Source: Escherichia coli O127:H6 str. E2348/69 (lineage in GTDB: Bacteria > Pseudomonadota > Gammaproteobacteria > Enterobacterales > Enterobacteriaceae). Taken from it: a stretch of DNA of 64,000 nt. The stretch lies in the NCBI RefSeq assembly GCF_000026545.1, contig NC_011601.1; one strand, given 5' to 3'. Shown in pieces: positions 5,682-46,959 of this stretch. Position numbers and translations under genes: made by a program. Position 1 is the first letter of the stretch. Each line of letters starts with the position of its first letter. The notes under the pieces were generated by a model, which did no database searches, was not told the origin of the DNA, and saw only the letters and a list, made by a program, of their open reading frames with translations.

Positions 5682-7001
5682 TTAACCGTGTTTATTTTTC
5701 AGTTCAAAGCGTGGTGAGACCAGACCATACAGTGTCCAACCGAGGAAGGTCACGATGGAACCGTATAGCATGGCTTCTTCCCCGGATGAGTACAGCGCAT
5801 AAAAGCTGTACATCGCGCCAACAAAAGCAACAAAGTTTGCAACTTTCGCTTTTGAGGGGGGCACATTAGCGACCTTCTGAATAATGACTAATGCCGCCAT
5901 TGACAGAATATACGGAATGATATTGGTCACCACGGCCAGGTTAACCAGCACGTTGAACTGACTGTTTAGCGACGGGCTAATCGTCATCAGCGCCAACCCG
6001 CTCTGGATAATCACAATGGTCAACATTCCCTGCACCGGTGCATCCACTTTGGTTACACGGGAGAAAATTTTAGGGAAGTAGCCTTCATCAGATGAAGATT
6101 TAAACACCTGGGCAATGGTGAACTGCCAGCCAAGCAGCGAACCGCAGCAGGACATCACCATCAGCGCCATAATGACTTTACCCACTTCCGGCGTGAACAT
6201 CTGCGCGAAGGCCAGACCAAATGGTGCCGTTGAATTTGCCAGCTCCATATTTGGCACAATCCCGGCAATCACGTTGGTGGAGACGATATAAATCACCGCC
6301 GCACCTAACGTACCGCCGAGTACCGCGATTGGCACATTACGTTCCGGGTTTTCCACTACATCAGTATTCGCACACGCAGACTCCAGACCAAGAAAAGCCC
6401 ACAGCGTCATAGCGATGGAAGAACCTACCGCACTGAAGAAGGGTGCATGATGCGGATTCCAGGAATCAACGTAAAGCGTCGGGCTAAACCAGAACCAGCC
6501 GATAATGCACAGGCCTACCACCGGAATAATGACCCCCCACACGGTAATGCTACTGATTTGCCCGGTAATGCGCGCACCACCAAAGTTAGCCACGGTACAA
6601 ATCCACAGCACCCCGATGGTCGCAAGACCAATCTGCACTGGCGACAAACTCGCGCCGAGCAGTTCGGTGCCGTAACCAACCGCCGAAATAGCAATCGCGA
6701 CGTTAGCAATCAGCAGCGAGACGCCGTAGGTATAGTTCGCCATAAAGTTACCGGATTTACCGAAAGCATACTCGGCATAACCGCCCATACCTCCTGATTT
6801 ACGGCTGAACATACCGCATTTTGCGAATGCCCATGCCAGTGCCATTGAGCCTACGGCTGTCACCAACCAGGAGATTATTGAGATTGTCCCAACTTCGGCA
6901 AGCTTTGTCGGCAGCATGATGATGCCGGAGCCCATCATGTTGACCATCGTCAGTATGGTTAACTGAACGACGCCCATCTTGTTCGATTTAGCCTGACTCA
7001 T
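5682..7001 (-). CDS. potE: Putrescine-ornithine antiporter
   Basis: 439-aa polytopic APC-family transporter; speF-potE operon synteny. Confidence 0.93.
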   Translation of the reverse strand: MSQAKSNKMGVVQLTILTMVNMMGSGIIMLPTKLAEVGTISIISWLVTAVGSMALAWAFAKCGMFSRKSGGMGGYAEYAFGKSGNFMANYTYGVSLLIANVAIAISAVGYGTELLGASLSPVQIGLATIGVLWICTVANFGGARITGQISSITVWGVIIPVVGLCIIGWFWFSPTLYVDSWNPHHAPFFSAVGSSIAMTLWAFLGLESACANTDVVENPERNVPIAVLGGTLGAAVIYIVSTNVIAGIVPNMELANSTAPFGLAFAQMFTPEVGKVIMALMVMSCCGSLLGWQFTIAQVFKSSSDEGYFPKIFSRVTKVDAPVQGMLTIVIIQSGLALMTISPSLNSQFNVLVNLAVVTNIIPYILSMAALVIIQKVANVPPSKAKVANFVAFVGAMYSFYALYSSGEEAMLYGSIVTFLGWTLYGLVSPRFELKNKHG

Positions 7002-9196
7002 AATTTTTCCCCTTTCAGCAGGGTGCTTTGCGCATCACGAGGCTTGATGACATAGCACCAAACTTGCTTACGACCATCATGTTCTTCGATATAGACACCC
7101 TGCAGCTCCGGTGCAAAACCTGGCAGCAGGTTGATGCCTTCTTCCAGAGCGCTGAAGTAACGCAGAACAGCACCACCCCAGATTTCACCAGGAACAACAC
7201 ACAGCACACCCGGAGGATAAGGAAGCGCACCTTCGGCAGCGATACGGCCTTCTGCATCCGGCAGACGAACCAGCTCCACTTCACCGCGTAAGTAGGCGTA
7301 GTTGGCTTCTTGCGGATTCATGCTGACGCGTGGGAAGTGTTCCTTACGGAACATCTCTTTTTGCAGTTGTTTCACGTTGTGGCGGGCATACAAATCATGC
7401 ATTTCCTGGCACAACTGACGAAGGGTATAACCGGCGTAGCGCTCTTCATGCTGTTTGTAGATGGAAGGCAGTACTTCTGATAATGGCGCGTCGGACTCAA
7501 GCAGTTTTTCGAAGCGTACCAGCAGAGCAGCAAGTTGCTGAAGTTTGGCCATATCTTCTGCCGGAGTCAGCAGAAAGAGGATGGAGTTAAGATCGCATTT
7601 TTCCGGCACTACGCCATTTTCGCGCAGGAAGTTAGTAAGAATCGTCGCGGGTACACCGAACGCTTCATATTCGCCGTTACGTGCATCAATACCTGGGGTT
7701 GTCAGCAACAGTTTGCACGGATCGACAAAGTATTGATTCTCTGCATAGCCTTCAAAAGAATGCCAGTGCTCACCTGGTACAAACTGGAAGAAGCGCAGAT
7801 CAACCGCAATTTGCGCTGTTTCATACGACTGCCAGGGTTTACCATCCACCAGTTCAGGTACGAATGGACGAATATGCTGACAGTTATCGAGGATCAGTTT
7901 GCGGGCATTAATGCCATTTACCACACAATCCATCCACATATTACGACCGCTGACACCTTCATGCATTTTGGCGTTGATATCCAGTGCGGCAAACAGCGGA
8001 TAGAACGGGCTGGTGGAGGCATGCATCATAAAGGCGTTGTTCATGCGTTTGTGCGATACATAACGCTGTTGCCCTTTGATATGGCTGTCTTTTTTATGGA
8101 TTTGTGAAGTCTGGGAAAAACCAGCCTGCTGTTTATGCACAGATTGCGTAACCAGAATACCCGGATCGTTCTCATTAAGATCCAGCAACAGTGGTGAACA
8201 GTCCGCCATCATCGGGATAAACTGCTCATAGCCGACCCATGCGGAGTCAAAGAGGATGTAGTCACACAGATGACCAATTTTATCCACCACCTGACGGGCG
8301 TTATAAATCGTACCGTCGTAAGTGCCTAGCTGAATAACGGCGAGGCGGAAAGGACGCGCCTCTTTTGCCCGCTGCGGTGCGACTTCCGCGATCAGTTCAC
8401 GCAGGTAACTTTCTTCAAAACAGTGAGCGTCAATACCACCGATAAAACCATACGGGTTACGTGCGGTTTCCAGATAAACCGGTGTCGCGCCAGCCTGTAG
8501 CAACGCTCCGTGGTGGTTAGATTTGTGGTTATTGCGGTCAAACAGCACCAGATCACCCGGTGTCAGCAGGGCGTTTAAAACCACTTTGTTAGAAGATGAA
8601 GTGCCATTTAGAACGAAGTATGTTTTATCGGCATTAAACACTTTTGCCGCATGTTGCTGTGCAATGCATGGCGCGCCTTCGTGAATCAGCAGATCGCCCA
8701 TTGCCACATCCGCGTTGCACAAGTCAGCACGGAACAGCGCCTCACCAAAGTATTCCACAAACTGATTCCCCGCCGGATGGCGACGGAAAAATTCGCCGCC
8801 CTGATGACCGGGGCAATCAAACGCGCTGTTACCCTGATTGACATAATCGACCAGTGCGCGGAAGAAGGGCGGGCGCAGTTGAGTTTCATAATGGCTGGCT
8901 GCGGTTTCTAACTGACGACCATAAAATTCTCGTCGCGATTCGCAATTCTCAAAGACACCCGAAATACGGGGCAAATACTCTGCGGGTACACGTTCTTGAT
9001 TTTCAGTAGCAATAAATACCGGGATGCCATAACCCGTGGCATCGATTTCATCGAGTTTTCCGCGTGTAACATCGTTGAGCGATAAAACTATTGCCGCCAC
9101 ATCGATATTACTGTTTTCATTAATATCGATACATTTTCGCTGCGTGGTAAAACAGTCCGGGCAAGAATCACTAACCGCAATTTTTAATTTTGACAT
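6998..9196 (-). CDS. speF: Inducible ornithine decarboxylase
   Basis: 732 aa from MSKLKIAVSDSCPDCF…; fold-III PLP decarboxylase; the supplied ORF has an N-terminal extension that was trimmed. Confidence 0.93.
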   Translation of the reverse strand: MSKLKIAVSDSCPDCFTTQRKCIDINENSNIDVAAIVLSLNDVTRGKLDEIDATGYGIPVFIATENQERVPAEYLPRISGVFENCESRREFYGRQLETAASHYETQLRPPFFRALVDYVNQGNSAFDCPGHQGGEFFRRHPAGNQFVEYFGEALFRADLCNADVAMGDLLIHEGAPCIAQQHAAKVFNADKTYFVLNGTSSSNKVVLNALLTPGDLVLFDRNNHKSNHHGALLQAGATPVYLETARNPYGFIGGIDAHCFEESYLRELIAEVAPQRAKEARPFRLAVIQLGTYDGTIYNARQVVDKIGHLCDYILFDSAWVGYEQFIPMMADCSPLLLDLNENDPGILVTQSVHKQQAGFSQTSQIHKKDSHIKGQQRYVSHKRMNNAFMMHASTSPFYPLFAALDINAKMHEGVSGRNMWMDCVVNGINARKLILDNCQHIRPFVPELVDGKPWQSYETAQIAVDLRFFQFVPGEHWHSFEGYAENQYFVDPCKLLLTTPGIDARNGEYEAFGVPATILTNFLRENGVVPEKCDLNSILFLLTPAEDMAKLQQLAALLVRFEKLLESDAPLSEVLPSIYKQHEERYAGYTLRQLCQEMHDLYARHNVKQLQKEMFRKEHFPRVSMNPQEANYAYLRGEVELVRLPDAEGRIAAEGALPYPPGVLCVVPGEIWGGAVLRYFSALEEGINLLPGFAPELQGVYIEEHDGRKQVWCYVIKPRDAQSTLLKGEKL

Positions 9197-38336: not shown

Positions 38337-39205
38337 TGTCCATTTTAATTGATAAAAACACCAAGGTTATCTGCCAGGGCTTTACCGGTAGCCAGGGGAC
38401 TTTCCACTCAGAACAGGCCATTGCATACGGCACTAAAATGGTTGGCGGCGTAACCCCAGGTAAAGGCGGTACTACCCACCTCGGCCTGCCGGTGTTCAAC
38501 ACCGTGCGTGAAGCTGTTGCTGCTACTGGCGCTACCGCCTCTGTTATCTACGTACCAGCACCGTTCTGCAAAGACTCCATTCTGGAAGCTATCGATGCAG
38601 GCATCAAACTGATTATCACCATCACTGAAGGCATCCCGACGCTGGATATGCTGATTGTGAAAGTGAAACTGGATGAAGCAGGCGTTCGTATGATCGGCCC
38701 GAACTGCCCAGGCGTTATCACCCCGGGGGAATGCAAAATCGGTATCCAGCCGGGTCACATTCACAAACCAGGTAAAGTGGGTATCGTTTCCCGTTCCGGT
38801 ACGCTGACCTATGAAGCGGTTAAACAGACCACGGATTACGGTTTCGGTCAGTCGACCTGTGTTGGTATCGGCGGCGACCCGATCCCTGGCTCTAACTTTA
38901 TCGACATCCTCGAAATGTTCGAAAAAGATCCGCAGACCGAAGCGATCGTGATGATCGGTGAGATCGGCGGTAGCGCTGAAGAAGAAGCAGCGGCGTACAT
39001 CAAGGAGCACGTTACCAAGCCAGTTGTGGGTTACATCGCTGGTGTGACTGCGCCGAAAGGCAAACGTATGGGTCACGCAGGTGCGATCATTGCCGGTGGT
39101 AAAGGGACTGCGGATGAGAAATTCGCAGCTCTGGAAGCCGCAGGCGTGAAAACCGTTCGCAGCCTGGCGGATATCGGTGAAGCACTGAAAACTGTTCTGC
39201 AATAA
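38336..39205 (+). CDS. sucD: Succinyl-CoA synthetase alpha subunit
   Basis: 289-aa ORF; ATG overlaps the sucC stop; CoA-binding fold, phospho-His region. Confidence 0.97.
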
Positions 39206-39305
39206 ATATCTGTAATAAGAAATAGCCCTCGCCGCTTCCCTCTACAGGAATGGCGAAGGGCTGTCGGTTTCGACATGGTTGGCCATCATATGATGGCCTT
39301 TTTTA
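39206..39305 (+). ncRNA. sdhX: SdhX (RybD) sRNA derived from the sucD 3'UTR
   Basis: About 100 nt between the sucD stop and the intrinsic terminator (ggccatcatatgatggcc plus TTTTTTAT); position matches the described 3'UTR-derived sRNA. Confidence 0.6.
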
Positions 39306-39308
39306 TGC

Positions 39309-40031
39309 TTATCGCGATGATTTTCGCTGCGCTATCAGGGTAAATTTATAGTCATCGGTATTAAAAGCGTTGCGGCTATATTCAAACACCCGGCCATCAA
39401 CTAAATATCCACGCGATACTTTTTCAAGAATCGGCTTAGTCTGGCTGATATTAAGCAGACGGCTCATTTCTTCGGTTGGCATCAGAGGAATGATTTCCTG
39501 TTCGCTACGATCGATAACCATTTTCTTCACTTCTTCAATAAAGTGATATTTCGAATTTTCCATGACCTGCCAGGTGAGATCCGGGAACAACGCAAGCGGC
39601 ATCCAGGTTTCTTCCAGCGCCATTGGCTTTTGCTTGCGATAGCGCACGCGCTTCACATGCCACACACGATCCTGTGGGGTGATTTGTAGCTGTTGCTGAA
39701 GAAAATCGTCAGCCGGAATCACTTCGAATATCAGAACTTCACTGTGTGTATCGACGTGACGGTCCGTCAGTTTTTCATCAAAACTGGTTAACTGAAAAAT
39801 ATCGTAATTGACCCGCTCTTCTTTTACGTAAGTCCCGCTGCCCTGAATACTTTCGAGGATCTGCTGTTCAACTAACTGGCGCAAAGCCTGACGCACCGTA
39901 ACCCGGCTGACGCCAAACTCTGTTTGTAGCGCTGATTCAGTGGGTAACGCATCGCCAGGTTTAAGCTCGCCACGCGCAATTTGCTCACGAATGCGATCAG
40001 CAATCTGTCGGTATAAGGGTTTCCGTCCCAT
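39309..40031 (-). CDS. mngR: GntR-family repressor MngR (FarR)
   Basis: 240-aa ORF with N-terminal GntR helix-turn-helix and UTRA-type effector domain. Confidence 0.93.
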   Translation of the reverse strand: MGRKPLYRQIADRIREQIARGELKPGDALPTESALQTEFGVSRVTVRQALRQLVEQQILESIQGSGTYVKEERVNYDIFQLTSFDEKLTDRHVDTHSEVLIFEVIPADDFLQQQLQITPQDRVWHVKRVRYRKQKPMALEETWMPLALFPDLTWQVMENSKYHFIEEVKKMVIDRSEQEIIPLMPTEEMSRLLNISQTKPILEKVSRGYLVDGRVFEYSRNAFNTDDYKFTLIAQRKSSR

Positions 40032-40140
40032 GATTTAGCATCTCATTAATACGAATTTAGCCATTATGCCCGATAAATTCATCCTGCAAATAATACAAAT
40101 ACAATACAAATAATTTCAATAAAGTGAAATTGATCACATA

Positions 40141-40531
40141 ATGGTGTTGTTTTATCGGGCACACTGGCGCGACTATAAAAACGATCAAGTGAGGATCATG
40201 ATGAATCTGACGACTCTGACCCACCGCGATGCGTTGTGTCTGAATGCGCGCTTTACCAGCCGTGAAGAGGCCATCCACGCGTTGACTCAACGTCTTGCTG
40301 CTCTGGGGAAAATTTCCAGTACTGAGCAATTTCTGAAAGAAGTGTATTGCCGTGAAAGCCTTGGCCCGACCGCCTTAGGTGAAGGGCTGGCTGTGCCGCA
40401 TGGCAAAACTGCTGCGGTAAAAGAAGCGGCGTTTGCGGTCGCCACACTCAGCGAGCCGCTTCAGTGGGAAGGCGTGGATGGCCCGGAAGCGGTTGATTTA
40501 GTGGTGTTGCTGGCGATTCCCCCCAATGAAG
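40141..40531 (+). pseudogene. mngA: mngA 5' fragment (PTS EIIA domain of the mannosylglycerate permease), truncated by the IS50-like element
   Basis: About 131 codons of the PTS fructose-type EIIA domain (…GLAVPHGKTAA… phospho-His region) run directly into the IS left end at 40532, where the frame continues into IS sequence and stops. Confidence 0.8.
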
Positions 40532-42081
40532 CTGTCTCTTATACACAAATCCCCACCCGGGGATTTGTGATGTCTGTCAGTCTGCTTTAGGGGGACTCTT
40601 TCCATCCGGTAGTTTCCTTCCTCCCCGGCAGCGATTTTTTGAACTTTTTCCTCACCCGTTGATCTTCTCTTATATTTCATTTTCTTCGGGTCTGTTATGG
40701 TACTTTCTGATTGTTATTCATGGGCTAACGAGCAGTTTGGACATGCCCGTCTCGGTGATCCGCGTCGTACACGACGCCTTGTGTCACTGGCCTCTTCTCT
40801 CGCTCAGCATGCAGGTCTTTCTATTGTGAAATCATCCCAGTCCACTGCTCAGGTTGAAGGTGCGTACCGCCTGATACGTAACCCGTCTGTGTCCCCGCAA
40901 GCCATTGCCGAAGCCGGATTTACCGCCACTGTAAGGGCATGTGAGGCTCATCCGCTGCTCCTCGCGCTGGAAGACACCACCACCATTAACTTCAGTCACA
41001 GTACGGCATCTGATGACCTGGGGAATACCACCACTAACCCGAAGACGCGCGGGCTGCTGGCTCACTCTGTCCTGATGTACGCCCCCGACAGCGCCCTGCC
41101 AGTCGGTCTTATCGAACAGCAGCGCTGGAGTCGTGCCACGGACACCTACGGTGTTAAGCACCAGCGAAAAGAACGTCCCTATGAAGAAAAAGAAAGTTAC
41201 CGCTGGCAGCAGGCTTCGGAGCGCATGGCCGAACGGCTGGGGGAGATACAGAAACGGGTAATCACTGTCTGTGACCGGGAAGCGGATATCTGGCATTACC
41301 TGCATTATAAAGTCAGCCACGGGCAGCGCTTCGTGGTGCGTGCAGCACAGAATCGCCGGCTGGAAGAAGCACCCGGCAAGCTCTTCGAACTGCCGGAAGT
41401 CCTGGCAACCGCGGGAAGCCACACGCTGAATGTGATGCAAAAAGGCGGGCGGGCAGCCCGCCAGGCCCGGATGTTCATCAGTTACAGCGAAGTCAGCATA
41501 AAAAATCCCGACAACAGCGGCCAGGCGCTCCCGCTCACGTATGTCTGTTGCCGGGAGCAGGCAGAGGACGGCGCCTGCTGGCATCTGCTGACGTCAGAAA
41601 AAGTGGCGAGTGCCGCCGATGCGCGACGTATCGTCAGCCATTACGAGCGACGCTGGCTGATAGAGGAATACCACAAGGCGTGGAAAAGTGGTGGTACATG
41701 TGTGGAATCGCTGCGAATGCAGACCCGGGATAACCTCGAGCGCATGGTGGTTATCAAGGCGTTTATCGCGGTGCGGGTGCTGGGCCTGCGGCAGGGCGGT
41801 ATCAGTGAAGAAACACAAAATGACAGCTGTGAGAAAATACTGACGCCGACAGAGTGGAAACTGCTGTGGGTTAAGCTGGAAGGAAAACCGCTTCCGTCAC
41901 AGATGCCGACACTGAAATGGGCCTGTCTGAAACTGGCGAAACTGGGGCGATGGCATGACAGCAAACGCACCGGTCGCCCCGGTTGGGTAGTCATGTGGGA
42001 TGGCTGGTTCAGACTTCAGGATATGGTTGAGGGTTACCTGGTGATGAAGTCTCTTGATCAGGAGATCTGATCAAGAGACAG
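40532..42081 (+). mobile_element. IS50-like insertion sequence (IS4 family), about 1.55 kb, with asymmetric OE-like and IE-like termini
   Basis: Left terminus CTGTCTCTTATACACAAAT (IS50 outside-end-like); right terminus on the complementary strand CTGTCTCTTGATCAGATCT (IS50 inside-end-like, two GATC sites); one 457-aa DDE transposase ORF fills the element; the 9 bp flanking the two ends differ (ccaatgaag vs cccgggcga), so there is no target-site duplication. Confidence 0.85.
40697..42070 (+). CDS. IS4-family (IS50/Tn5-like) DDE transposase
   Basis: 457-aa ORF; clear similarity to Tn5 transposase as recalled (LGDPRRT…, …LEDTT…, …VCDREADI…, …RWLIEEYHKAWKSG…), with all three DDE catalytic-residue contexts present. 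Confidence 0.85.
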   Translation: MVLSDCYSWANEQFGHARLGDPRRTRRLVSLASSLAQHAGLSIVKSSQSTAQVEGAYRLIRNPSVSPQAIAEAGFTATVRACEAHPLLLALEDTTTINFSHSTASDDLGNTTTNPKTRGLLAHSVLMYAPDSALPVGLIEQQRWSRATDTYGVKHQRKERPYEEKESYRWQQASERMAERLGEIQKRVITVCDREADIWHYLHYKVSHGQRFVVRAAQNRRLEEAPGKLFELPEVLATAGSHTLNVMQKGGRAARQARMFISYSEVSIKNPDNSGQALPLTYVCCREQAEDGACWHLLTSEKVASAADARRIVSHYERRWLIEEYHKAWKSGGTCVESLRMQTRDNLERMVVIKAFIAVRVLGLRQGGISEETQNDSCEKILTPTEWKLLWVKLEGKPLPSQMPTLKWACLKLAKLGRWHDSKRTGRPGWVVMWDGWFRLQDMVEGYLVMKSLDQEI

Positions 42082-42142
42082 CCCGGGCGAAGAGGGCTGC
42101 TTTGGTCCACGTCGATCCAATATCGACAGAGACGATTTGCAT
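42082..42142 (-). pseudogene. 20-codon 5' stub of a glmL/mutL-like gene (glutamate mutase reactivase component), cut by the IS right end
   Basis: Minus-strand ATG overlapping the glmS-like stop (TGATG) opens [20 protein letters not shown], an ASKHA-type N-terminal phosphate-1 motif, and runs directly into the IS end. Confidence 0.55.
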
Positions 42143-42591
42143 CAGATTGCCTCTTCAAGAATACGAGTATCAACGTCATGACGTTGGTTGATATCGTGGG
42201 CCATCAGCTGACAAACATCTTCTAAGTCATGACTTGGGGCAAAGACGCGATCAAATCCCATCTCTTTGAATTTGGTTTCCACGTCAGCGAAGTCATGTTT
42301 TCCGACCACCAGGTTACCGCCCACATAGAGCAGGATGTCCCCCAGTCCACGCTCGATGCAGCGTTCGCGCATGCCCAGACAGTCGATATCGCCATGCCCA
42401 TAGATAGAGGAGACGACAATCGCGTCAGCGCCAGTTTCAATGGCCGCATCAATATATTCGTCCTGGCTGACCATTACGCCCAGATTAATGACTCTGAAGC
42501 CATGGTTGCTAAAAACGCGGTCCAGAACTTTATTGCCTACTGCATGGCAGTCCGCGCCAATAACGCCAATCACAAGTGTTGCTTTCTTCAT
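42142..42591 (-). CDS. Methylaspartate (glutamate) mutase S-subunit-like cobalamin-binding protein
   Basis: 149 aa from [21 protein letters not shown]… with an AAGGA ribosome-binding site 7 nt upstream; carries the DxHxxG B12-binding motif (DCHAVG) and is closely similar to the clostridial GlmS/MutS S chain as I recall it. Confidence 0.75.
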
Positions 42592-43137
42592 GGGTAATCC
42601 TTTGTAAGACAGAGAGTAAAATAAGTTACACACGTCGTATTTATGGCCGTTCATAACGGCACAGGTTTAATATCACAGGAGTGTCTTTATCTGACCGTAA
42701 TGTTGCAATTGATCTATTTTCAAAATGTCTTTCGGGAAATGATTGTTTAAAGTATGTTGTTAAATTCTCATGTTAATTCAGTGTGTTATGTCAACTAATG
42801 TCATGAATGTTAAATTTTTAAAATTAACTTGATTTGGTGTATTGAGGTATTTGTGATCTACTTCTAATTTGCATTTTAGTGATATGGGTTTAGCCATGAG
42901 TAAATGCATTTCATAAAATTTAAGTCGAATTTCACTGCAATTCATCTCTGCTTAATGTAAAAATAATGTTGAAAATAACAAATGGTTAATGATTCATGCG
43001 AATTATGACCTTAGTTAGCTCTTTTGATTTTTCGTAAAAAAGAGAGGTACATGAAGGTGCTACCAGTATGAGTAACGTTAATCAAAGGTTTTATTACCTC
43101 TGGCAATAACGCAGGCCATTTTCGCGACTGGGTGGAT

Positions 43138-43560
43138 TTAATCAGTATAATCCTCATACAATAGTTCACGATTAACTGAACCGTTAACGGGGATTTGGTG
43201 TTGAAATTTAGAAATGGCGGAGTCAATTAATGAAGACAATATCGAAAAAATGACAGTGTCAGAATTAATTTCAATTAATCCTTCTCGTTGTTGACCAAAA
43301 AAGATATTTATCTTGATTTCATTTGTACTACGGCAATCAATATGTAGTAATTTTTGATCGCTGAGATTTTCTGTTTCATAAATGTTTTTGGCGATAGTCG
43401 GATGAATTGATGCCAGACATCTGCTCAGATAAGCCAGTTCCTTTAGGGAACACCCCGCTGAGTAGAGGATGTCAGAGAATTTTTGTGTGTCAACTGTTGT
43501 CTCTGAAGCGTATGTTGCATTGACAGGAAGGGTGTTGAAAGAGATTTGAGATGGGATCAT
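43138..43560 (-). CDS. Hypothetical protein, 140 aa, no recognisable domain; downstream gene of the AT-rich two-gene cassette
   Basis: ORF-track ORF MIPSQISFNTLPVNATYASE…; GGAAAG about 10 nt upstream; AT-rich codon usage unlike the flanking core genes; no signal peptide or TM segment apparent. Confidence 0.5.
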   Translation of the reverse strand: MIPSQISFNTLPVNATYASETTVDTQKFSDILYSAGCSLKELAYLSRCLASIHPTIAKNIYETENLSDQKLLHIDCRSTNEIKINIFFGQQREGLIEINSDTVIFSILSSLIDSAISKFQHQIPVNGSVNRELLYEDYTD

Positions 43561-43640
43561 TATTTAAATCTTTCCGTGAGTAATAAAAATTAATCCCCGG
43601 GCATTGTTTAGCAATATTTGCCACAGGGAATATATAAAAA

Positions 43641-44585
43641 TTAAAGTATTTGATTGGCATCGGTTAACTGATCAATAACCAGTGCCAGATTGGTAAACAT
43701 TTTGAAAAAGCGATACTGGCTCGGAATATCTCTTTCAAAGACGAAACATTCAATGTCATTGTTTGAAAAATAAAGGACTAGTGTTGCTGATTCGTCAGGA
43801 AAAATATGGAAATATATCTGGTTACCAGAAGGAGGATAGTCCAGAAGAAGGGTATCTTTGCCCGTCACATACCTGTTGTGGTCGTGGATGCTGCGCTCAC
43901 ACTTCATCAGAGGTGTCATGATACTCATGTATTCATCTGATGTTAATATATTAAAATCACCATCCATTTTAAAGAAACGATAAAGTAACAGTACATCCTC
44001 TTGCGTAACCGGTTCGTTTGTTTTTAGAGGGAAATAAGTGGGAACCAGAAGATGAGGTTCTAATCTATTTTGTTGAGCGCTATAACTAAATTTGAACATA
44101 AATTCCGGATCGCTCATCAATTGAGCGACATAATTATGCCTGGCTTCAAAAATTTTAACTTTTATCAGGTTAAATAAGTCTGTTTCGTCATCCTGTATTA
44201 AAAGACATTGGCCATAGCAGTCAGGCTTTTTTTCATTATAAGCAGAAACGGTTATTCTGTCAGGAGTGTCAACGTTATATCCAAAAGCCAGATAGTGACC
44301 GTCCTCATCGAGATTTGTTTCCAGGTTATTTAAATTTATCACATGAAGTGTTTGCAATGCTGATTCAATGAGCTGTTGACTCTCTGAGGTAAATGTTTCG
44401 CGCTGCGTTGTATAAAGTGTATCGATTCCAACGACTATCCGATATGGGTCAAGGATGGCGGCAATCATCTTTATTACCTGCACAGTCACGGGTGATGTCA
44501 TTGATTCGTTATCTGTTTTTAGAGGATCATTAGATGGCCAACCTGAGAAGCGATTGACAGCCGAACCGATATTATCAGGACTCAT
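43641..44585 (-). CDS. Hypothetical protein, 314 aa, no recognisable domain; upstream gene of the AT-rich two-gene cassette
   Basis: ORF-track ORF MSPDNIGSAVNRFSGWPSNDPL…; GAGG 8 nt upstream of the ATG; AT-rich; acidic, no TM segments; 80-bp gap to the 140-aa ORF on the same strand. Confidence 0.55.
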   Translation of the reverse strand: MSPDNIGSAVNRFSGWPSNDPLKTDNESMTSPVTVQVIKMIAAILDPYRIVVGIDTLYTTQRETFTSESQQLIESALQTLHVINLNNLETNLDEDGHYLAFGYNVDTPDRITVSAYNEKKPDCYGQCLLIQDDETDLFNLIKVKIFEARHNYVAQLMSDPEFMFKFSYSAQQNRLEPHLLVPTYFPLKTNEPVTQEDVLLLYRFFKMDGDFNILTSDEYMSIMTPLMKCERSIHDHNRYVTGKDTLLLDYPPSGNQIYFHIFPDESATLVLYFSNNDIECFVFERDIPSQYRFFKMFTNLALVIDQLTDANQIL

Positions 44586-45039
44586 AGCAGCAACCTCATT
44601 GTAATCAAGCGAGGCGCTGAGCGTACTCGGCTATAGAAAAACTAACTTGCAAAAATCGCTCATTTTTCATTTATCAGGCGAAAGTGGTCTCTGTTCACTC
44701 AGAAACAATCACTCCCGCTAAGTCATACCTGTTTCATCGATACATTTAAGTGATTATTACTAATGAAACAATAACATAACGGGCTTACGGCCGGTGCTCA
44801 TAAAGGCAACAATCAATTAACTTTGATAAAAATATGTTATGTAAAATAGCAACAAATTGGCTAATCTAATCAATTGGTATTATAAAAAGTGGATAAGGCG
44901 GTTCTGTTAAATAAAACACTGGTTTTTTATCTATACCTTTTCATTGTAATAATTGTGTTGCATAAATATTTCACAATAAATTAACAATAAAATCACCAAT
45001 GATCTATGGTTTATACATAATTAACATATTTGGTTGGTT

Positions 45040-45053
45040 TTGATATAAATCAA
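45040..45053. promoter_or_regulatory. FNR-box-like site (TTGAT-N4-ATCAA) in the cydAB upstream regulatory region
   Basis: ttgatataaatcaa is an exact match to the FNR half-site consensus spacing, within the long AT-rich cydA upstream region. Confidence 0.45.
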
Positions 45054-45390
45054 TTTTTAATTCTTGAAAAAAATCTGCAAAACACGATAAATTGTCGTAG
45101 ATCAAATTGGTGAGATCGTGACAATTTCGCTATAAATTGATCACTGTCGAAAAATGCAAATTTGCTCAATAAAAACCTGTTTATTGTAAGGATTTTGCGG
45201 CGTAATATAATTACGGGATCAATTTGGTTTATTCATTAACATATTTGTAACTTTTTTATCATTGTCTTTTCCTCTTTTGATGAAATGGCAACGATAGAGG
45301 CGAGCAAATAATTTTGTATTGGGGCATGCGTGTGACCCTTTCTAACGGGGTTCACTCTCGGAGTCTTCATGCGATGAGCAAGGAGTCATG

Positions 45391-46959
45391 ATGTTAGATA
45401 TAGTCGAACTGTCGCGCTTACAGTTTGCCTTGACCGCGATGTACCACTTCCTTTTTGTGCCACTGACGCTCGGTATGGCGTTCCTGCTGGCCATTATGGA
45501 AACGGTCTACGTCCTTTCCGGCAAACAGATTTATAAAGATATGACCAAGTTCTGGGGCAAGTTGTTTGGTATCAACTTCGCTCTGGGTGTGGCTACCGGT
45601 CTGACCATGGAGTTCCAGTTCGGGACTAACTGGTCTTACTATTCCCACTATGTAGGGGATATCTTCGGTGCGCCGCTGGCAATCGAAGGTCTGATGGCCT
45701 TCTTCCTCGAATCCACCTTTGTAGGTCTGTTCTTCTTCGGTTGGGATCGTCTGGGTAAAGTTCAGCATATGTGTGTCACCTGGCTGGTGGCGCTCGGTTC
45801 AAACCTGTCCGCACTGTGGATTCTGGTTGCGAACGGCTGGATGCAAAACCCAATCGCGTCCGATTTCAACTTTGAAACTATGCGTATGGAGATGGTGAGC
45901 TTCTCCGAGCTGGTGCTTAACCCGGTTGCTCAGGTGAAATTCGTTCACACTGTAGCGTCTGGTTATGTGACTGGCGCGATGTTCATCCTCGGTATCAGCG
46001 CATGGTATATGCTGAAAGGTCGTGACTTCGCCTTCGCTAAACGCTCCTTTGCTATCGCTGCCAGCTTCGGTATGGCTGCCGTTCTGTCTGTTATTGTTCT
46101 GGGTGATGAATCTGGTTACGAAATGGGCGACGTGCAGAAAACCAAACTGGCTGCTATTGAAGCCGAGTGGGAAACGCAACCTGCGCCTGCTGCCTTTACT
46201 CTGTTCGGCATTCCTGATCAGGAAGAGGAGACGAACAAATTTGCGATCCAGATCCCTTACGCGCTGGGCATCATTGCAACGCGTTCCGTGGATACTCCAG
46301 TTATCGGCCTGAAAGAACTGATGGTGCAGCATGAAGAACGCATTCGTAACGGGATGAAGGCGTACTCTCTGCTCGAGCAACTGCGTTCTGGTTCTACCGA
46401 CCAGGCGGTTCGTGACCAGTTCAATAGCATGAAGAAAGACCTCGGTTACGGTCTGCTGCTGAAACGCTATACGCCAAACGTGGCTGATGCGACTGAAGCG
46501 CAGATTCAACAGGCAACCAAAGACTCCATTCCGCGTGTAGCGCCGCTGTACTTCGCGTTCCGTATTATGGTGGCGTGTGGCTTCCTGCTGCTGGCAATCA
46601 TCGCGCTCTCTTTCTGGAGTGTCATCCGCAACCGCATTGGCGAGAAAAAATGGCTGCTGCGCGCCGCGCTGTACGGTATTCCGCTGCCGTGGATTGCTGT
46701 AGAAGCGGGCTGGTTCGTGGCTGAATATGGCCGCCAACCGTGGGCTATCGGTGAAGTGCTGCCGACAGCTGTGGCGAACTCGTCACTGACCGCAGGCGAT
46801 CTCATCTTCTCAATGGTGCTGATTTGCGGCCTGTATACCCTGTTCCTGGTGGCAGAATTGTTCTTAATGTTCAAGTTTGCACGCCTCGGCCCAAGCAGCC
46901 TGAAAACCGGTCGCTATCACTTTGAGCAGTCTTCCACGACTACTCAGCCGGCACGCTAA
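45391..46959 (+). CDS. cydA: Cytochrome bd-I ubiquinol oxidase subunit I
   Basis: 522 aa from [28 protein letters not shown]…; the supplied ORF starts one Met earlier. Confidence 0.96.

Follow-up and report, generated by a model that had tools for sequence, protein, structure and literature searches.

A conserved but nearly silent pair of orphan genes beside cydA in Escherichia coli, a possible Escherichia-restricted operon under H-NS-type silencing

Here, we describe two adjacent genes of Escherichia coli O127:H6 str. E2348/69, encoding proteins of 314 and 140 amino acids for which the family libraries and sequence collections that we searched offered no match. We consider it quite possible, if somewhat short of probable, that the pair is a silenced, Escherichia-restricted orphan operon at the cydA-proximal end of the methylaspartate segment in the sucD-cydA interval. 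In the mechanism that we propose, the AT-rich DNA of the pair would be subject to xenogeneic silencing of the H-NS type and would be expressed only under some niche condition. The 314-aa protein would be the functional core and act on its own, while the 140-aa protein might be a dispensable auxiliary partner, i.e., a binder or modulator and not an antidote. Under this proposal, the pair would be neither a phage-defence module nor a toxin-antitoxin module.

Results

Organization of the locus

The window, i.e., the entire stretch of DNA that was analyzed, comprises 64,000 nucleotides of the E2348/69 chromosome. According to the RefSeq annotation of E2348/69, the order of genes around the pair is sucABCD, mngR, a truncated mngA, ISEc13, glmS, the pair and cydAB. 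The relevant features are as follows.

42142..42591, minus strand: glmS, methylaspartate mutase S subunit, first gene of the glutamate-fermentation island
42592..43137, minus strand: AT-rich noncoding spacer of 546 bp from the small gene to glmS, GC ~0.30
43138..43560, minus strand: small orphan gene, 140 aa, WP_000613121.1 "hypothetical protein" (ORF call and RefSeq annotation)
43561..43640, minus strand: 80-bp intergenic spacer between the large and the small gene, with indels among alleles
43641..44585, minus strand: large orphan gene, 314 aa, WP_001339355.1 "hypothetical protein" (ORF call and RefSeq annotation)
44586..44750, minus strand: islet-specific region upstream of the large gene, presumed promoter region (promoter scan and allele comparison)

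A first-pass annotation, made from the letters of the window alone, had described two co-directional minus-strand ORFs of 314 and 140 aa lying 80 bp apart, each with a plausible ribosome-binding site. The coordinates are confirmed, and the sequence reads GAGG 8 nt before the ATG of the large gene and GGAAAG 9 nt before that of the small gene. The same annotation had judged the pair to be more AT-rich than its flanks, and this also holds: GC is 0.34 to 0.38 over the pair (about 36%) compared to about 52% in the flanks, a difference that gives the DNA of the pair a foreign look. The noncoding DNA adjoining the pair is at 0.26 to 0.33, and glmS, cydA and the IS are at 0.51 to 0.56. Its placement of the pair in an accessory interval, next to an IS and a decayed island, was likewise correct, with ISEc13 and the glmS remnant both lying in the variable sucD-cydA interval.

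On one side, glmS is immediately downstream of the pair in the same orientation and is the sole remnant of the methylaspartate island in E2348/69, in which both ORFs of the pair are intact; the spacer at 42592..43137 probably holds the promoter of the glm operon. On the other side, the pair abuts the cydA regulatory region. The wider neighbors are sucABCD, mngR, glm genes, cydAB and tol-pal. The region upstream of the large gene occurs as two allele classes that are ~16% apart, and homology with strains lacking the pair starts at 44750. Rfam, repeat, promoter and terminator scans of positions 42000 to 46000 returned nothing notable. A third gene in the spacer at 42592..43137 was considered and rejected, the candidate ORFs of 55 aa and 71 aa being broken in other alleles.

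Coding status of the two ORFs

Several lines of evidence show that both ORFs are genuine protein-coding genes under moderate purifying selection, as judged from patterns of sequence change. First, a 314-codon open frame has a probability of about 2e-10 of arising by chance at the local composition. For a frame of 140 codons, length alone is no strong argument (about 0.3 such frames are expected in the region), and the reality of the small gene therefore rests on its conservation. Second, among the alleles compared (EDL933, AST85, SC418, RMDEC465 and one E. albertii-type contig), dN/dS was 0.29 to 0.43 for the large gene in three comparisons and 0.25 to 0.36 for the small gene in two comparisons, with every bootstrap confidence interval below 1 (ranges 0.17 to 0.72 and 0.10 to 0.71, respectively). 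As a control, the two shifted frames gave higher values of 0.55 to 1.19; thus, the constraint is specific to the annotated frames. Third, at a divergence of up to 10%, no indels were present in the 945 nt of the large ORF or the 423 nt of the small ORF, compared to indels in at least one comparison each for the 80-bp spacer, the 546-bp glmS spacer and the regions upstream of the large gene and cydA. Fourth, the 945-nt frame is open in E. albertii despite a divergence of 23% at the nucleotide level and 35% at the amino-acid level. A dN/dS of ~0.4 nevertheless represents relaxed constraint.

Homology searches

As judged by all searches conducted, both genes are taxonomically restricted orphans of Escherichia. 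No Pfam domain was detected at E<0.1 in either protein or in any of 22 members of the large-protein family, each of which was scanned by itself; NCBIfam, PADLOC, PHROGs and a profile search of PDB sequences gave no meaningful match for either protein, and nothing in all family searches together fell below an E-value of about 0.06. The observation in the first-pass annotation that neither protein has a recognizable domain is borne out by these empty searches. Homology to characterized housekeeping families, which it had named as a finding that would speak against its proposal, was found for neither protein in the same searches.

A word-seeded search of 5.8 billion clusters retrieved only Escherichia and Shigella sequences for both proteins, those related to the small protein being confined to E. 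coli and Shigella, and all named cluster members are described as "hypothetical" or "uncharacterised". For the large protein alone, an exhaustive HMMER profile search over 1.84 billion representatives yielded 14 matches, all of which are short fragments of the protein itself. Also for the large protein alone, a GTDB scan of one genome per species, covering 100,044 bacterial and archaeal species, identified four loci: one in E. albertii, one in Escherichia sp. MOD1-EC7003 and one in each of two MAGs labeled Citrobacter and Collinsella, which carry E. coli sequence that is 98 to 99% identical and are mislabeled. Phage copies of the pair were not found, and three "plasmid" matches turned out to be records of 0.73, 4.94 and 4.90 Mb that are all predicted to be non-mobilizable and are not true plasmids. 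Literature searches using locus-tag and WP identifiers found no paper that discusses the two genes.

Distribution in E. coli and linkage to glmS

The pair was matched in 1135 of 5426 complete E. coli genomes. In 1134 of these 1135, both genes together are covered to at least 80%, always at this locus, and both genes were annotated in all 60 genomes sampled. Carriers include O157:H7, O145, E2348/69, strains labeled ST69 and ST38, and isolates from birds, dogs, pigs, fish and sediment. In one E. coli genome, the large gene is interrupted by IS elements. In LF82, the pair is missing, and because a 53-nt remnant of glmS is kept and homology resumes at window position 44750, we interpret this absence as a deletion.

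The methylaspartate (glutamate-fermentation) segment, which is known from O157:H7 and has been described there as the FumD cluster (PMC4682846), probably has the pair as its cydA-proximal end in E. coli. At a coverage of at least 80%, glmS is present in 1134 of the 5426 genomes, so that glmS and the pair agree in their totals. Because the two counts are equal, the co-occurrence of the large and small genes within E. coli need not mean that they are functionally coupled; it may reflect linkage within one inherited block. Conservation of the pair, by which the first-pass annotation had proposed to judge its suggestion, is evident in the 1134 E. coli genomes, where linkage to glmS is a possible explanation, and it breaks down in E. 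albertii.

History of the locus in E. albertii and other lineages

In E. albertii, cydA is likewise flanked by the large gene, at the corresponding site, in a locus that has no glm island; of the small gene, a stump and a 44-nt piece are left. At least 13 distinct full-length 314-aa variants exist in this species. Thus, the large gene is not dependent on the small gene. Because the locus is shared with E. albertii at a fixed place beside cydA, it appears to be older than the split between E. coli and E. albertii and not to be specific to particular strains. Decay is nevertheless recurrent. The large gene of the E. albertii type strain is frameshifted; Escherichia sp. MOD1-EC7003 has two ERIC elements, one within the large gene and one at its 3′ end by the spacer, and has lost ~300 bp of the small gene; and Shigella dysenteriae has truncated forms. 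These pseudogenes indicate that the genes are dispensable and have been lost repeatedly, and they may be on the way to loss.

The arrangement of the locus raises the question of whether the pair could be an accessory or regulatory appendage of its neighbors, either the glm (methylaspartate/mesaconate) operon downstream or the divergent cydAB promoter region. We give this only a slim chance. Such a link is suggested only by position: the pair is contiguous and co-oriented with glmS, lies directly upstream of it, abuts the cydA regulatory region and is found in exactly as many E. coli genomes as glmS. However, homologous glutamate-fermentation clusters have been reported in Klebsiella, Citrobacter, Salmonella and Yersinia (PMC4682846), whereas the large protein has no homologue outside Escherichia among the 100,044 species, and the sequence searches with both proteins were empty outside Escherichia and Shigella. 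Moreover, the base composition of the pair differs from that of the island, with the GC of 36% compared to about 51% pointing to a separate origin; E. albertii has the large gene without the island, and E2348/69 has kept both ORFs intact while its glm island is deleted except for glmS. Finally, neither of the two acidic proteins has a DNA-binding or enzymatic signature.

Expression and silencing

Table S4 of Landstorfer et al. 2014 (PMC4048457) reports RNA-seq data for EDL933 under 11 laboratory and environmental conditions, and in its entries the tags Z0896 to Z0899, among which are the two genes of the pair, lie between glmS (Z0895) and cydA (Z0900). In these entries, Z0896 has an RPKM of 0 in all 11 conditions, Z0897 of at most 2 and Z0898 of at most 5, and Z0899 reaches 11 to 12 in two conditions and is at 0 in the rest; cydA is listed at 13 to 212 (PMC4048457). 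One translatomics supplement does not list Z0896 to Z0899. Lack of transcription under any condition was another outcome that the first-pass annotation had regarded as speaking against its proposal, and with at most 12 RPKM in EDL933 across 11 conditions, the data come close to it without showing complete silence.

A promoter scan found no strong or consensus sigma-70 promoter upstream of the large gene, and a terminator scan found no terminator-like hairpin in the 80-bp spacer; because the spacer lacks such a hairpin, the two genes are likely to be co-transcribed. AT-richness relative to the genome and low expression, which are both expected of H-NS-silenced DNA, are both present here. In K-12, H-NS is known to bind the neighboring cydAB control region. 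The low GC together with the low RPKM values fits xenogeneic silencing of the H-NS type.

The same silence is compatible with a less favorable interpretation, namely that the pair is a relic of formerly functional foreign genes that now have no role and are kept by their silence and by linkage to useful neighbors. We regard this as unlikely, although it carries appreciable weight. Expression near zero, relaxed constraint and repeated loss are all in its favor, the losses comprising the frameshift in the E. albertii type strain, the ERIC insertions and deletion in MOD1-EC7003, the IS disruption in one E. coli genome, the truncations in S. dysenteriae and the deletion of the whole segment in LF82. 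However, dN/dS is significantly below 1 for both genes and the 945-nt frame is uninterrupted in both E. coli and E. albertii, whose sequences are 23% apart here at the nucleotide level. Within E. coli, only 1 of 1135 genomes falls below 80% coverage and both genes are annotated in 60 of 60 sampled.

Features and structure models of the two proteins

Both proteins are predicted to be soluble and acidic, with a pI of 4.55 for the large and 4.82 for the small protein. The maximum Kyte-Doolittle score over 19 residues was 1.35 to 1.37, and no transmembrane segment is predicted in either protein, in agreement with the first-pass annotation. The N-terminal ~30 residues of the large protein are rich in Ser, Thr, Asn and Pro, the N-terminal ~25 residues of the small protein are polar, and the N-termini of both proteins are conserved. 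Over residues 2 to 26, the fraction of S/T/N/P/Q is 0.48 in the large and 0.56 in the small protein. Across 45 ORFs of the window, this fraction averages 0.26 (sd 0.09). The value of the large protein is the highest of the 45, and that of the small protein is higher still; the feature is not specific to secretion signals.

AlphaFold2 models based on shallow alignments had mean pLDDT values of 42.5 and 41.3 and are unusable. With these low-confidence models, Foldseek searches were uninformative: they returned only the proteins' own entries from AFDB50 and nothing below an E-value of 0.01 from the PDB, with TM scores of at most 0.26. The core of the small protein was modeled, at low confidence, as two or three helices followed by three strands and a helix, and the models hinted at a repeated helix-helix-three-strand-helix unit, present once in the small protein and once in each half of the large one. 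A common origin of these three segments from one helix-strand-helix domain is unsupported by sequence comparison (BLASTP E 1.7; hhalign E 0.06 to 0.2 with a probability <1%). An actin-like/ASKHA reading of the motifs VGIDTLYT and PPSGNQ, made by eye, was dropped, as no profile backs it and the flanking Asp lacks conservation.

The unusual N-termini bear on the possibility of type III secretion, in which the large protein would be the substrate and the small one its partner or chaperone, or both would be substrates, with export by the LEE or ETT2 systems under host-associated conditions. We hold this to be decidedly improbable. Besides the two N-terminal S/T/N/P/Q fractions, which are the highest in the comparison with the 45 ORFs, and the conservation of these N-termini, the neighboring gene encodes a small acidic protein (pI 4.8), as in pairs of a non-LEE effector and a class I chaperone of the Tir/CesT type, and the low GC, orphan status and silent expression are as in non-LEE effector genes. 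Such effector genes are typically of low GC, orphan-like and silent, and their products share the Ser/Thr/Asn-rich N-termini. The named hosts sampled, i.e., E2348/69, O157, O145 and E. albertii, are moreover all known as LEE-positive. By contrast with such effector/chaperone pairs, neither protein matches a T3SS effector or CesT/SycE-type chaperone family in Pfam, the pair lies outside any prophage or effector island, and the small gene is dispensable in E. albertii, which would have lost the "chaperone" and kept the "effector". The pair is also equally present in ST69- and ST38-labeled lineages and in avian, canine and environmental isolates, which are generally not known to carry the LEE. 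In the low-confidence model, the secondary structure of the small protein is not of the CesT topology, and polar N-termini are not a specific mark of secretion signals.

Lack of support for a defence module

The first-pass annotation had suggested, as a speculation, that the pair is a toxin/immunity, abortive-infection or other defence module, and it had pointed to one R-x4-H context in the large protein as a hint of a HEPN-like nuclease. The motif exists, RSIHDH at residues 231 to 236, but this hint fails because H236 is Ser in E. albertii; RSIHDH in E. coli corresponds to RSIHDS in E. albertii, and the invariant residues R231 and H234 only make up an R-x2-H. No HEPN-superfamily profile of Pfam was matched at E<0.1 by any of 22 family members. 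Among Pfam and NCBIfam families, we found neither a recognizable toxin fold nor a DNA-binding antitoxin domain as expected of type II toxin-antitoxin systems, and PADLOC-DB v2 gave 0 families at E≤1 for both proteins. The vicinity of the pair is free of defence genes, integrases and phage DNA.

Taken together, it is very unlikely, more so than any of the alternatives above, that the pair is a toxin/immunity, abortive-infection or anti-phage module with a HEPN-like large protein. This idea draws on the gene order, large before small, within AT-rich accessory DNA, on the R-x4-H context of the E. coli alleles and on the room that unrecognized folds leave for novelty. The resemblance to HEPN-containing toxin modules (HEPN-MNT and Abi-type) extends only to the two-gene layout and this one motif, which is not conserved and which is placed by the low-confidence model in a predicted strand region and not in an all-helical domain. 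Unlike in those modules, no HEPN or other nuclease family of Pfam is matched, no MNT- or antitoxin-like partner is present, both proteins are acidic, and the two genes need not occur together, since E. albertii has kept the large one and lost the small one, which counts against an obligate toxin/immunity pair. An abortive-infection or defence role is further disfavored by the lack of a PADLOC match and by the setting, a fixed chromosomal site with metabolic and respiratory neighbors and no sign of mobility. Defence and toxin-antitoxin genes are usually expressed constitutively; by contrast, transcription of the pair is near zero. The absence of a defence role is not proven; however, no positive evidence for such a role is left.

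Discussion

The pair resembles orphan genes residing in those AT-rich islets of E. coli that are subject to H-NS-type silencing, and it shares with them the lack of homologues outside the genus, low GC, location in a variable interval, near-silence, moderate purifying selection and frequent loss in sister lineages. It differs from these genes in that two adjacent and co-oriented genes are involved, that they occupy a fixed site by cydA and that the locus is also present in E. albertii. We conclude that the pair is an uncharacterized case of a familiar class, i.e., silenced, lineage-restricted accessory genes, and not a demonstrated new system.

A more far-reaching possibility, which we rate as quite unlikely although a little less so than a role in secretion or as an appendage of the neighbors, is that a new fold or family, which arose or was acquired in the ancestor of Escherichia, is embodied in the 314-aa protein, alone or together with the 140-aa protein, and has a conditional role directed at a host or a competitor, being silenced in culture. 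The product might, for example, be secreted as a substrate or belong to a conflict module of a new kind. Silencing in culture, if true, would have hidden such a family from screens to date. If a conditional function exists, it would be an Escherichia-specific trait, present in E. albertii and in approximately one-fifth of the complete E. coli genomes, O157:H7 and EPEC among them.

The main value of these findings is negative and practical, in that the pair is not to be counted as a candidate for a defence or toxin-antitoxin system. At the same time, the pair is a clean and well-delimited example of an orphan operon that is conserved but silent, and as such it is suited to studies of the origin of orphan genes and of xenogeneic silencing in Escherichia.

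Variation in the sucD-cydA interval

Strong variability among Escherichia characterizes the interval between sucD and cydA (window positions ~39200-45390), as compared across loci L001, L003, and L006 from other genomes. In K-12-type strains, the only common sequence in this interval is the ~380 bp upstream of cydA. O157 carries a 12-gene glutamate-fermentation segment together with the pair (large gene, 314 aa; small gene, 140 aa), LF82 carries a TPR protein and a 53-nt remnant of glmS, and E. albertii carries the large gene and an unannotated 258-aa ORF, the product of which has a signal-peptide-like N-terminus.

In locus L004 (GCA_002230845.1, NLPL01000018.1), the entire cydA/tol region is split into many short ORFs, and the two 82-aa "homologues" of the small protein from this locus (P0046 and P0047) seem to be frameshift artefacts that stem from the low quality of the assembly rather than true variants. 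The contigs of L008 and L009, from MAGs that bear the names Citrobacter sp. and Collinsella sp., have a large gene 98-99% identical to that of E. coli, and these contigs probably represent E. coli contamination or mis-binning.

Escherichia sp. MOD1-EC7003 (locus L011) has two repeat insertions of opposite orientation; the large gene contains one of them and has the second at its 3' end:

~6349-6469 (L011), ERIC/IRU element
~7091-7218 (L011), ERIC/IRU element

The ERIC1R primer sequence matches one of these elements exactly and the other with 3 mismatches. No ERIC copies were found within the 64-kb window of E2348/69.

Divergence of the pair and its upstream region

The pair (43138-44585) shows 7-10% nucleotide divergence, with dS of 0.15-0.23, vs. 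~2% nucleotide divergence for the adjacent glmS (compared over 42142-42654) in the same strains, i.e., three to five times higher. This excess could reflect old allelic lineages, recombination, or a raised local substitution rate. Two allele classes are seen in the 165-bp stretch that precedes the large gene (44586-44750), with AST85 and RMDEC465 differing from E2348/69 by ~16% and EDL933 and SC418 by 0-1.2%. Divergence in the adjacent cydA upstream region, at 0.5-4.2%, is far lower than in 44586-44750.

An ISEc13 junction in E2348/69

In E2348/69, mngR is of the K-12 type and is accompanied by a truncated mngA, glmS is of the O157 type, and a copy of ISEc13 joins the two parts:

40141-42591, mngA fragment, ISEc13, and glmS
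40697-42070, ISEc13
42142-42591, glmS, O157-type

The stretch from mid-mngA to glmL appears to have been deleted by ISEc13, which implies that an ancestor had mngRAB and the full methylaspartate island.
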